Source: a virus (taxonomy: Duplodnaviria; Heunggongvirae; Uroviricota; Caudoviricetes). From it: a DNA stretch of 21,246 bases. Position numbers and translations under genes: made by a program. Positions 10,861 through 18,296 of this stretch are shown piece by piece (positions within the stretch are counted from its first letter, which is position 1; every line of letters begins with the position of its first letter). The stretch covers positions 1-21,246 of IMG/VR virus record IMGVR_UViG_2534681772_000016; one strand, written 5' to 3'. The notes below the pieces were generated by a model. It did not search any database. It was given only the letters and a program-made list of their open reading frames with translations, and had not been told where the DNA came from.

Positions 10861-11511
10861 ATGAAAACTCAATTGATGGGAGAGCGCATTCGCGCTCGGA
10901 GAAAAGAACTCAAGATCAGGCAGGCCGCACTTGGAAAGATGGTCGGCGTGTCTAATGTTGCCATATCTCAGTGGGAACGCTCTGAGACAGAGCCAAATGG
11001 AGAGAATCTTCTCGCCCTGGCTAATGCGTTGAAGTGTTCCCCTGACTATCTGATGAAAGGAGAGGAAAGTCTTTCAAACATTGCCTATCACAGTAGGCAT
11101 GATCCAAGAGGGTCATACCCTCTGATTAGCTGGGTGAGCGCAGGATGCTGGATGGAAGCTGTAGAACCATATCATAAGCGTGCAATAGATAACTGGTACG
11201 ATACAACCGTAGACTGTTCAGAAGATTCGTTTTGGTTGGACGTGAAGGGAGACTCAATGACGGCTCCGGCCGGTCTCAGTATCCCTGAAGGAATGATAAT
11301 ACTCGTCGATCCTGAAGTAGAGCCGCGTAACGGGAAACTGGTAGTTGCAAAGCTCGAAGGAGAAAACGAGGCAACTTTCAAGAAGTTAGTTATTGATGCA
11401 GGCAGGAAGTTTCTAAAACCACTTAACCCACAATATCCGATGATCGAGATCAACGGAAACTGCAAAATCATCGGCGTAGTTGTCGATGCAAAACTAGCAA
11501 ACCTTCCATAA
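10861..11511 (+). CDS. c2: Prophage repressor, P22 C2 type (HTH plus LexA-like S24 peptidase domain)
   Basis: The 216-aa product MKTQLMGERIRARRKELKIRQAALGKMVGVSNVAISQWERSETEPNGENL... ends in ..GDSMTAPAGLSIPEGMIILVDPE..KLANLP, the autocleavage-domain motifs. Confidence 0.9.
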   Translation: MKTQLMGERIRARRKELKIRQAALGKMVGVSNVAISQWERSETEPNGENLLALANALKCSPDYLMKGEESLSNIAYHSRHDPRGSYPLISWVSAGCWMEAVEPYHKRAIDNWYDTTVDCSEDSFWLDVKGDSMTAPAGLSIPEGMIILVDPEVEPRNGKLVVAKLEGENEATFKKLVIDAGRKFLKPLNPQYPMIEINGNCKIIGVVVDAKLANLP

Positions 11512-11824: not shown

Positions 11825-12097
11825 ATGACAGTAGTCATTACATATCTGGCTGACGATAACGCCAGAAATCGCCGCAGAGCACGCAGACAGGCTCAACGTG
11901 AACAGGCAATGCAAGAGCAGCGACTGGCGCGAAAAATTGCGCTAAAGCTCTCTGGTTGCGTCAGAGCAGACAAAGCAGCATCACTAGGAAGCCTTTGCTG
12001 CAAGAAGGCAGATGAATGCAGTGGAAGTATTTGCCTGCCAAACGTAGCCGTTTACGCGGCAGGCTACCGGAAATCAAAACAATTGACGGCGAGGTAA
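11825..12097 (+). CDS. N: N-like transcription antiterminator (arginine-rich motif)
   Basis: The N-terminal arginine-rich motif is DNARNRRRARRQAQREQA. The C-terminus LPNVAVYAAGYRKSKQLTAR resembles the P22 gene 24/N family as recalled. The gene lies downstream of nutL. Confidence 0.7.
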   Translation: MTVVITYLADDNARNRRRARRQAQREQAMQEQRLARKIALKLSGCVRADKAASLGSLCCKKADECSGSICLPNVAVYAAGYRKSKQLTAR

Positions 12098-12099
12098 TT

Positions 12100-12462
12100 A
12101 TGGGTCAGGAAGAAAAATATGAGCTTAAAAAGCTCATTGAAGAAGACGGCATAGAAGAAATTGCAGCATTAACAACAGCTATAAAGAATATTAGGTATGC
12201 GCTAAATGCGCTTATCTCCTCATGCGACAAAAATAGCAGGGAATTTTTGATACTTGGCGCAGCTCTAGGAATAGTTGATGCGGCAACGCTTCACCTAATT
12301 ACTCATGACGATATTCTTATTGAGCCGTATGAAACATTACTGCTTGTCAGGCAAAAAATGGCTGATGCCGCAGCAAATGGAGACCTTCAACTTTACATCG
12401 ACTTAAGGAAAGTATTAAGGCGAATGGTCAGAACTGAAGGAGATATCCCCCTGACAAAATAA
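12100..12462 (+). CDS. Hypothetical protein (120 aa), first early-left accessory gene after N
   Basis: The ORF MGQEEKYELKKLIEEDGIEEIAALTTAIKNIRYALNAL... has a GAGG RBS and starts directly after the N stop. No family was recognised. Confidence 0.5.
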   Translation: MGQEEKYELKKLIEEDGIEEIAALTTAIKNIRYALNALISSCDKNSREFLILGAALGIVDAATLHLITHDDILIEPYETLLLVRQKMADAAANGDLQLYIDLRKVLRRMVRTEGDIPLTK

Positions 12463-12562
12463 GGGGGTAAGAGGATTTTACTATTTTTCTCGCTGTAGGG
12501 GTACACGAGAACCACCGAGCCTGATGTGGTTAAAAGACAGGCATACTAATAAACACTGCACT

Positions 12563-12590
12563 GTGTATTCATTCCAACGAGTGAATACAC
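12563..12590 (+). other. Perfect 9-bp inverted repeat hairpin in a 236-bp intergenic spacer
   Basis: gtgtattca-ttccaacgag-tgaatacac. No T-run follows it, so it is not a typical intrinsic terminator. Confidence 0.4.
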
Positions 12591-12652
12591 GGAGCAATGT
12601 CGCTCGTAACTAAACAGGAGCCGACTTGTTCTGATTATTGGAAATCTTCTTT

Positions 12653-12680
12653 GCCCTCCAGTGTGAGGGCGATTTTTTAT
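12653..12680 (+). terminator. Intrinsic terminator (tL-type, presumably read through by N-modified polymerase)
   Basis: The hairpin gccctc-cagtgt-gagggc is followed by gattttttat, 19 bp upstream of the next ATG. Confidence 0.7.
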
Positions 12681-12698
12681 CTGTGAGGATATGAACAG

Positions 12699-13067
12699 AT
12701 GTCAAACATCAAAAAATACATCATTGATTACGACTGGAAAGCATCAATAGAAATTGAAATCGACCATGACGTAATGACAGAGGAAAAACTTCACCAGATT
12801 AATAATTTCTGGTCAGACTCTGAATACCGACTCAATAAACACGGCTCTGTATTAAATGCTGTATTAATCATGCTGGCGCAACATGCTCTGCTTATAGCAA
12901 TTTCAAGCGACTTAAATGCATATGGTGTTGTGTGTGAGTTCGACTGGAATGATGGAAATGGTCAGGAAGGATGGCCTCCAATGGATGGTAGCGAAGGAAT
13001 AAGAATTACCGATATCGATACATCAGGAATATTTGATTCAGATGATATGACTATCAAAGCCGCCTGA
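12699..13067 (+). CDS. Hypothetical strongly acidic protein (122 aa)
   Basis: The ORF MSNIKKYIIDYDWKASIEIEIDHDVMTEEKLHQINNFWSDSEY...DIDTSGIFDSDDMTIKAA has a large excess of Asp and Glu over Lys and Arg. No family was recognised. Confidence 0.55.
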   Translation: MSNIKKYIIDYDWKASIEIEIDHDVMTEEKLHQINNFWSDSEYRLNKHGSVLNAVLIMLAQHALLIAISSDLNAYGVVCEFDWNDGNGQEGWPPMDGSEGIRITDIDTSGIFDSDDMTIKAA

Positions 13068-13142
13068 GCGCGGCGTTACCGCATACCAATAACGCTTCAC
13101 TCGAGGCGTTTTCGTTATGCAATCAAATATAAGGAGTTACCC

Positions 13143-13277
13143 ATGATGCACTTTCAGCTCGCGGGTAGCGGCGTCATGTCCGCTTTCTACCCGCACGAAT
13201 CTGAATTATCACGCCGAGTTAAACAATTAATCAGAGCAGCAAAGAAACAACTGGAGGCGTTATGCGCAATGAAATAG
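13143..13277 (+). CDS. cIII: CIII-like protein (putative FtsH inhibitor), 44 aa
   Basis: The product MMHFQLAGSGVMSAFYPHESELSRRVKQLIRAAKKQLEALCAMK has a central amphipathic helix resembling the lambda CIII core PSESLLERITRKLRDGWKRLIDIL. An AAGGAG RBS precedes it. Confidence 0.5.
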   Translation: MMHFQLAGSGVMSAFYPHESELSRRVKQLIRAAKKQLEALCAMK

Positions 13278-13413
13278 CCATCAATCACCAGATGCTTCGT
13301 GCTGCACAGAACAAAGCAGTAATAGCCAGATTTATTGGTGATTCAAAAATGTGGCTTGAAGCAAATAAAGCGATGAAATCAGCTATCAACCTTCCGTGGT
13401 ATCGCAGGAAATG
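13261..13413 (+). CDS. Hypothetical small protein (50 aa)
   Basis: The ORF MRNEIAINHQMLRAAQNKAVIARFIGDSKMWLEANKAMKSAINLPWYRRK has a GGAGG RBS and overlaps the end of the cIII-like ORF. Confidence 0.35.
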
Positions 13414-13487
13414 AGTTTTACAGATAACTGGTCAGACGAAGAATTCATTCGTCAGATGAAAGAATTAATCGGTAACGAAGGAGATAT

Positions 13488-17082: not shown

Positions 17083-17409
17083 ATGACTAAAAATACTCGT
17101 TTTTCCCCCGAAGTCCGTCAGAGGGCGATTCGTATGGTTCTGGAAAGTCAGGGCGAATATGACTCACAGTGGGCGGCAATTTGTTCCATTGCCCCAAAGA
17201 TTGACTGTACACCGGAGACTCTGCGTGTCTGGGTACGCCAGCATGAGCGGGATACCGGAGGCGGTGATGGCGGGCTCACCACCGCTGAACGTCAGCGTCT
17301 GAAAGAGCTGGAACGTGAAAATCGTGAACTGCGCCGCAGTAACGATATCCTTCGCCAGGCTTCCGCTTATTTTGCGAAGGCGGAGTTCGACCGCCTCTGG
17401 AAAAAGTGA
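17083..17409 (+). CDS. IS3-family transposase OrfA (HTH)
   Basis: The 108-aa product [40 protein letters not shown]... has a leucine-zipper-like C-terminus and matches IS629/IS1203-type OrfA as recalled. Confidence 0.9.
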
Positions 17410-18296
17410 TGCCACTGCTGGATAAGCTGCGTAAGCTGTACGGGGTCGGACCGGTATGCAGTGAACTACATATTGCCCCGTCAACGTATTACCACTGTCA
17501 GCAACAGCGACATCATCCTGATAAACGCAGTGCCCGTGCGCAGCGCGATGACTGGCTGAAGAAAGAGATACTGCGCGTATACGATGGGAATCATCAGGTA
17601 TACGGTGTGCGTAAAGTCTGGCGTCAGTTGTTACGGGAAGGAATCAGGGTAGCCAGATGTACAGTGGCGCGCCTCATGGCGGTTATGGGACTTGCCGGTG
17701 TTCTCCGGGGTAAAAAGGTCCGCACTACCGTCAGCCGGAAAGCCGTTGCCGCAGGCGACCGCGTAAACCGTCAGTTTGTGGCAGAACGTCCTGACCAGTT
17801 GTGGGTGGCTGATTTTACTTACGTCAGCACATGGCAGGGGGTCGTCTATGTGGCGTTCATCATTGATGTGTTTGCCGGATACATCGTGGGGTGGCGGGTC
17901 TCATCGTCTATGGAAACGACATTCGTGCTGGATGCTCTGGAGCAGGCGTTATGGGCCCGTCGACCGTCCGGCACAGTCCATCACAGTGATAAAGGTTCTC
18001 AGTATGTATCGCTGGCCTACACACAGCGGCTTAAGGAAGCCGGATTACTGGCATCAACAGGAAGTACTGGTGACTCGTATGACAACGCGATGGCGGAGAG
18101 CATCAATGGCCTTTACAAAGCGGAGGTAATACACCGTAAGAGCTGGAAAAACCGGACAGAAGTGGAGCTGGCCACACTCACGTGGGTGGACTGGTATAAC
18201 AATCGACGATTGCTGGGAAGGCTGGGCCATACTCCTCCGGCAGAAGCAGAAAAAGCTTATTATGCTTCCATCGGAAACGATGATCTGGCAGCCTGA
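17406..18296 (+). CDS. IS3-family transposase OrfB (DDE domain), normally made as an OrfAB fusion by -1 frameshifting
   Basis: The 296-aa product has ..WVADFTYV.. and ..HHSDKGSQY.. and ..[15 protein letters not shown].. (the DDE triad context). It overlaps orfA in the -1 frame at an A-rich site. Confidence 0.9.

Follow-up and report, generated by a model that had tools for sequence, protein, structure and literature searches.

Early-left operons of described phages and the studied locus

The closest described systems are the early-left (PL) operons of phages lambda, P22 and HK620. Between the lambda genes ral and ea10 lies the small RNA LPR1, renamed PreS by Melamed and colleagues, whose 3' end is at the terminator tL2a (bioRxiv 10.1101/2024.10.31.621285). 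PreS is bound by Hfq, is processed from about 88 nucleotides (nt) to about 68 nt, and is made in the lytic cycle only (bioRxiv 10.1101/2024.10.31.621285; review PMC12197685). It opens the ribosome-binding site of dnaN and so activates translation, as proven by compensatory mutations, and it also aids phage DNA replication (bioRxiv 10.1101/2024.10.31.621285). The Ea10 protein of lambda is reported to be produced abundantly and was formerly mistaken for Kil (PMC3961180). It is non-essential (PMC10695390), and the authors of the PreS study call its role 'not fully understood' (bioRxiv 10.1101/2024.10.31.621285). In HK620, the gene hkaQ (PHROG 7374; also in HK629, HK630 and Stx1a phage 10051) follows the antiterminator gene N and is itself followed by the convergent gene hkaP. 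In lambda and P22, this stretch of the PL operon holds ral and sieB. Here we analysed this stretch in the IMG/VR virus record IMGVR_UViG_2534681772_000016 (positions 1 to 21,246, called the window), in which two open reading frames (ORF1 and ORF2) and a 236-nt spacer between them fill positions 12100-13067.

We found that the whole stretch is very probably an ordinary piece of the PL operon of an E. coli lambdoid prophage, assembled from known modules. ORF1 corresponds to HK620 hkaQ, ORF2 to lambda ea10, and the spacer to PreS; each of the three was already known from the literature or from databases. The combination is slightly unusual, with hkaQ lacking hkaP and ea10 lacking ral, while the elements themselves are all known. 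Window positions 12050-13120 matched the chromosome of E. coli TW10590 at 100% identity.

The initial annotation had described two ORFs of 120 and 122 amino acids (aa) directly after N, the second strongly acidic with an acidic tail, and a structured spacer between them. These descriptions were confirmed by the coordinates, charge and folding energy reported below. It had also stated that neither protein could be assigned to a family, which did not hold. ORF2 matched Pfam DUF2528 (PF10800) with 160.6 bits (cut-off 22) over profile positions 1-104 of 104, and ORF1 matched PHROG 7374 (E 2.8e-78) over residues 1-120 of 120. On the strength of these matches, both count as genuine genes and not as reading frames that arose by chance. 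The main features are listed here; coordinates are positions of the whole window, and the PL operon lies on the + strand.

12100-12462, +: hkaQ homolog (ORF1), 120 aa, four helices predicted (PHROG 7374, identity to HK620 HkaQ, AlphaFold2)
12563-12590, +: conserved hairpin directly 5' of PreS (spacer fold; identical in lambda)
12591-12678, +: PreS (LPR1), predicted Hfq-dependent small RNA, form of about 88 nt (lambda identity, published location, fold)
12628-12653, +: predicted unpaired seed of PreS (fold; RNAduplex with the E. coli dnaN leader)
12651-12678, +: tL2a intrinsic terminator, 3' end of PreS (terminator scan; HK620 and phage 21 annotations; bioRxiv 10.1101/2024.10.31.621285)
12699-13067, +: ea10 (ORF2), lambda early protein Ea10, DUF2528, 122 aa, acidic (lambda identity; Pfam PF10800; AlphaFold2)

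Identification of PreS in the spacer

To characterize the spacer (12463-12698), we compared its folding energy with that of 200 dinucleotide shuffles. The spacer reached -75.9 kcal/mol against -57.9 +/- 4.7 for the shuffles (z -3.81), none of which folded as well. The 88 nt at window positions 12591-12678 are exactly those of lambda 33925-34012, the PreS form of about 88 nt, and the processed form of about 68 nt would begin near 12611. At its 3' end, the terminator scan found tL2a with an 8-bp stem containing five GC pairs and a TTTTTT tail. In the predicted fold of PreS, an unpaired stretch separates a 5' hairpin from the terminator (z -3.1). Taken together, the spacer carries PreS/LPR1 as judged by identity to lambda.

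We then evaluated the complementarity to dnaN. The seed is unpaired in the minimum-free-energy fold and pairs with the dnaN leader of E. coli MG1655 at about -48 to -17. The duplex of the seed with this leader was predicted at -27.6 kcal/mol, compared with -15.0 +/- 2.3 for 1000 shuffles (z -5.4). The full 88-nt RNA against the dnaN region gave a duplex no better than shuffles (23% were as good), and therefore only the seed-restricted test is meaningful. Thus PreS of the window agrees with that of lambda in sequence, terminator, unpaired seed and dnaN complementarity, whereas the region upstream differs: ral precedes PreS in lambda, and hkaQ and a promoter remnant precede it in the window, where PreS is known from its sequence.

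The steps of PreS action were established by others in lambda and are carried over to the window by 100% sequence identity. Firing of PL would give a transcript stopped at, or processed at, tL2a, yielding PreS. PreS would bind Hfq and pair through its unpaired seed with the host dnaN leader. This pairing would open the dnaN ribosome-binding site, leading to more beta clamp and helping phage DNA replication. PreS is the only piece of the stretch with an established mechanism, and the initial annotation had seen it merely as a structured spacer.

PreS has no Rfam model. Searches at gathering and permissive thresholds gave nothing significant in the spacer, and only the ALIL element described below exceeded the gathering threshold. 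Weak matches of the spacer to RyhB and S15-leader (E 0.5-2.7) were rejected as terminator-like only. Of 5426 complete E. coli genomes, 2239 (about 41%) contained the 151-nt PreS/tL2a region (12548-12698) at >=90% identity, in up to six copies each. No annotated feature lay under the match in 10 sampled E. coli records. It is of practical use to note that PreS, a booster of host beta-clamp synthesis, is unannotated despite being so widespread and often multicopy.

Identification of ORF2 as lambda ea10

ORF2 is identical to lambda Ea10 in 122 of 122 aa and 368 of 369 nt, and it matched PHROG 646 (E 3.8e-71). Window positions 12548-13057 equal lambda 33546-34055 base for base, an exact match of 510 nt that includes the leader. 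The Shine-Dalgarno sequence GAGGA lies 9 nt upstream of the start. ORF2 shares with lambda ea10 the upstream PreS/tL2a leader, the ribosome-binding site and the downstream neighbour cIII, and both its identity and its position between tL2a and cIII mark it as the orthologue of ea10. The surroundings differ from lambda. The window has no ral and orf28 upstream, and the downstream recombination genes gam-bet-exo of lambda are replaced by a Rad52-like gene and ssb.

The protein has an isoelectric point (pI) of 4.28, with 22 D+E against 8 K+R and a net charge of -14, and it ends in ...DIDTSGIFDSDDMTIKAA. Acidity was found in all 66 aligned family members (pI 4.05-4.79, net charge -8 to -20). The invariant or nearly invariant non-acidic positions of the family are Y7, E20-I21-D22-H23, N35, F37, R44 and E90-G-W-P-P-M-D-G-S-x-G100. 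An AlphaFold2 model built from the family alignment was compact, with a predicted local distance difference test score (pLDDT) of 95, a predicted template modelling score of 0.86 and the order beta-beta-alpha4-beta. Its acidic C-terminal stretch was modelled confidently (the last blocks having pLDDT 93 and 87), not as a disordered tail. The best Foldseek match of this model was no better than E 2.9, indicating that the modelled fold has no solid solved relative.

The Ea10 family comprises 118 clusters at 90% identity, mainly from Enterobacterales. DUF2528 also occurs in Mu-like phages of Burkholderia and Stenotrophomonas. In Salmonella and Oceanobacter, Mu-like prophages (L012-L015) carry homologs in their early region, with transposase B (AAA_22) on one side and Gam/GemA/Mor on the other. 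Therefore, the family is not limited to lambdoid phages.

Identification of ORF1 as hkaQ and its coupling to N

ORF1 is identical to HK620 HkaQ in 116 of 120 aa and is mildly acidic (pI 5.0, net charge -5). As in HK620, its ATG lies 2 nt past the N stop codon, and its Shine-Dalgarno sequence GAGG falls within the last N codons (GCG AGG TAA). HK620 continues with the convergent hkaP and has no ea10, whereas the window has ea10 and no hkaP. We examined this arrangement in 43 related loci and found the ATG 2 nt past the N stop in all 43, with the junction GCGAGGTA(A/G)(T/G)TATG. Thus the Shine-Dalgarno sequence of hkaQ is made by the last codons of N. The N proteins preceding hkaQ all end in ...AAG(Y/F/H)RKSxxLTAR (43/43 loci) but differ at the N terminus, where at least five kinds of RNA-binding arm occur. 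Since the junction is kept behind these different arms, HkaQ travels with the C-terminal module of N. Most likely, HkaQ is translationally coupled to N, as the junction suggests. HkaQ would then be made in step with N, as an optional accessory protein accompanying the conserved C-terminal module of N.

The conserved junction also bears on the RefSeq annotation, which calls a 148-aa hkaQ product from the ATG at 12016 (12016-12462, +), named 'antitermination N domain protein' and overlapping N out of frame. Because all 43 loci keep the junction, this start is unsupported and too early, and the start at 12100 is favoured, which is a point of practical use.

The HkaQ family is tiny, with five clusters among 5.8 billion proteins. 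An exhaustive phmmer search against 1.84 billion representatives returned seven matches, two of which were spurious: these were Calx-beta and PKD repeat proteins, matching the motif IxHDDxLxE by chance. HkaQ was found in seven phage records, and hkaQ in 96 of 5426 complete E. coli genomes. Its relatives include a 63%-identical homolog (P0003) with the same layout relative to N, and proteins of 44-52% identity from Yersinia (P0125, L022). The AlphaFold2 model of HkaQ contains helices at residues 3-40, 47-65, 78-92 and 96-111.

Metagenomic lambdoid contigs with the 63%-identical homolog (L006-L008) carry a convergent GhoS-like gene (PF11080, E 8.6e-7) after hkaQ. The same contigs have a second, different N-like gene (PF26859) further down the operon.

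Promoter-region remnant and absent genes

Compared with lambda, the window skips ral and orf28 (lambda 34056-34395), and hkaQ occupies the place of sieB. Window positions 12548-12698 correspond to lambda 33905-34055 (the ral-ea10 intergenic region), and 12486-12543 to lambda 34396-34453, 58 nt of the sieB promoter region just upstream of sieB. This remnant matches the annotated PsieB region of P22, and in HK620 it is also what precedes hkaP. The window lacks the convergent hkaP that HK620 carries as the counterpart of sieB, and the junction is at a short repeat: the microhomology GGGGT(G)AAGAGG flanks hkaP on both sides in HK620.

We found no homologs of Ral, SieB, HkaP or P22 gp17 anywhere in the window. 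A tblastn search with lambda Ral against the whole window gave a 7-residue chance match only, and neither ORF belonged to a Ral family in Pfam or PHROGs. The corresponding search with SieB gave no match, its promoter region being all that is left. HkaQ and Ea10 have no detectable sequence or fold similarity to Ral or SieB.

Two features belong to these junctions:

12447-12467, +: CCCCC...GGGGG hairpin across the hkaQ stop codon, adjoining the junction of the missing hkaP (read from the sequence; HK620 comparison)
12475-12545, -: putative sieB/hkaP promoter region remnant with no gene behind it, antisense into hkaQ (comparison with lambda, P22 PsieB and HK620)

A consensus promoter scan did not flag the remnant at 12475-12545, and its putative promoter activity is suggested by the sequence comparisons. 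If still active, it would cause antisense transcription across the 3' end of hkaQ.

Possible functions of Ea10 and HkaQ

The initial annotation proposed the two proteins as a candidate anti-restriction or exclusion module, with a DNA-mimic-like composition in the second. The idea that they form such a module, with acidic Ea10 mimicking DNA like Ocr or ArdA, draws on several observations. The region from N to cIII is a mosaic hot spot for accessory genes, and its counterparts in relatives carry ral, sieB, hkaP, a 156-aa ORF and P22 gene 17. The slot between PreS/tL2a and cIII is filled by Ea10, gp17 or nothing; gp17 (PF17420) takes the exact place of ea10 in other hkaQ prophages and belongs to an unrelated family with no similarity to it. 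According to the P22 annotation, gp17 lets P22 grow on Fels-2 lysogens. In addition, Ea10 proteins are acidic throughout the family, and in lambdoid phages as well as Mu-like ones, DUF2528 genes have a nuclease inhibitor gene (Gam) close by. Thus the position and the acidity noted initially both stand. However, the genes behind the reputation of this region, ral and sieB, are absent, as are hkaP and gene 17. Remote-homology searches and structure prediction for both proteins showed no resemblance to known anti-restriction, exclusion, DNA-mimic or single-stranded-DNA-binding (SSB) proteins, and acidic Ea10 has no fold or sequence relation to a known mimic. PDB sequence search, PADLOC and NCBIfam returned nothing for HkaQ or Ea10 except a chance Tim29 match (E 0.031). 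No anti-defence protein in the PDB was matched by either, and Ocr and ArdA were not among the matches listed. Furthermore, the content after hkaQ is freely mixed across the 43 hkaQ loci: hkaP, the 156-aa ORF and ral are each optional, followed by PreS, then Ea10, gp17 or nothing, and then cIII. Since the genes mix so freely, hkaQ and ea10 are not a unit. We therefore regard the two-protein module with a DNA mimic as improbable, and the region is not a new anti-restriction module. A different role for Ea10 is implied by the many lambda-derived and Shiga toxin (Stx) phage records that label it 'ssb' or single-stranded DNA-binding protein. Its modelled order beta-beta-alpha4-beta is not the oligonucleotide/oligosaccharide-binding (OB) fold, which removes the basis of this common label. 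No SSB appeared among the structural matches listed, and the acidity of Ea10 also speaks against it. An SSB function is thus hardly credible, and showing that the widespread label is unsupported is a useful outcome of this analysis. We also considered Ea10 as a free-standing SPFH (band-7)-like domain acting on host FtsH-HflKC together with the product of the neighbouring gene, the FtsH inhibitor cIII. The hhalign comparison of Ea10 with E. coli HflC and HflK gave probabilities of 0.1-0.2%. We judge this proposal very unlikely.

For HkaQ, the alternative is a partner or antidote of convergent hkaP, the putative exclusion protein of HK620, orphaned here by hkaP loss. The gene hkaP was found only beside hkaQ, in 66 of the 96 hkaQ-bearing E. 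coli genomes (>=85% DNA identity), with hkaQ alone in about 30, and the loss of hkaP at the short repeat in the window is clean. However, these genome counts are inflated by closely related O26 Shiga toxin-producing E. coli prophages, and behind the 63%-identical HkaQ homolog lies the unrelated GhoS-like gene instead. HkaP itself belongs to a different PHROG family (1244), and the invariant link of HkaQ is to N, not to hkaP. A pairing with HkaP is accordingly quite unlikely, and we prefer an accessory protein coupled to N.

Ea10 most likely works through a bound partner, either a host protein or a small ligand. In the mechanism we propose, this abundant, non-essential, acidic early protein would use the invariant EIDH and EGWPPMDGSEG segments as its contact surface and serve as a host-takeover or counter-defence factor. 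Action as a DNA mimic or SSB is unlikely. The position of the gene points to a counter-defence role, which we consider possible and hold with considerable doubt; DNA mimicry is clearly less probable than that. We tentatively suggest that lambdoid and Mu-like phages could share Ea10/DUF2528 as a protein for counter-defence or host takeover, acting on a host or prophage-encoded factor through the EIDH and EGWPPMDGSEG site, and that the rare HkaQ may be another accessory factor with this type of role. Ea10 is a 50-year-old orphan of the best-studied phage, and its occurrence in Mu-like phages together with its positional exchange with gp17 is a reasonable motive for counter-defence testing.

None of the evidence contradicts the identification of the stretch as a PL-operon piece with hkaQ, PreS and ea10, and the points that weigh against our reading of it are functional. 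The 5' ends of PreS in the window were taken from published sizes rather than mapped, and that this prophage expresses it is an assumption based on sequence identity. A consensus promoter scan found no promoter ahead of PreS, and therefore both an own promoter and cutting from the PL transcript are possible. The functions of Ea10 and HkaQ are indicated by neither experiment nor homology. The HkaQ model is moderately confident (pLDDT 76.6; four sequences), and the most conserved segment, HLITHDDxLIEP, is its least confident part. As a discovery the stretch carries little weight.

Neighbouring features and minor observations

The order of the PL operon in the window is a cI-like repressor (10861-11511), N, ORF1, the spacer, ORF2, cIII, kil, a Rad52-type annealase and ssb. 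The features flanking the region are:

11825-12097, +: antiterminator N of the phage 21/HK620 type, 90 aa (Pfam N_peptide 1.6e-14; PHROG 271; HK620 N annotation)
13091-13117, +: tL2b-like terminator between ea10 and cIII (terminator scan; HK620 tL2B annotation at the homologous place)
13143-13277, +: cIII, right-hand border of the mosaic region (Pfam cIII 2e-30)
13262-13414, +: kil

The cIII protein is only 44 aa long in the window, and its gene overlaps kil; the HK620 record ascribes the short form to an internal stop codon.

An accessory-gene screen by Silas et al. described orf184, a trigger of gop-beta-cII located in the accessory region that also holds ral (bioRxiv 10.1101/2023.04.06.535777). 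We compared it with Ea10 and HkaQ; orf184 starts with MEALVVERSEDGYWT and is neither protein. We also considered whether the block of host replication described by Sergueev et al. (2002) might map to ea10; by their titles, the papers citing that work deal with the exo-xis region. The 156-aa ORF mentioned above (L018 3589-4059 and related loci) has no Pfam match; many hkaQ prophages carry it between hkaP and PreS, as a further uncharacterised gene in this hot spot.

We also observed the ALIL pseudoknot (Rfam RF01497, 116 bits) at window positions 17364-17480 (+), the frameshift element of an IS3-family transposase. This indicates an insertion sequence inside the early-left region of the prophage. 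In the near-identical prophage of TW10590, an IS3 copy is located elsewhere, between the Rad52-like gene and ssb.
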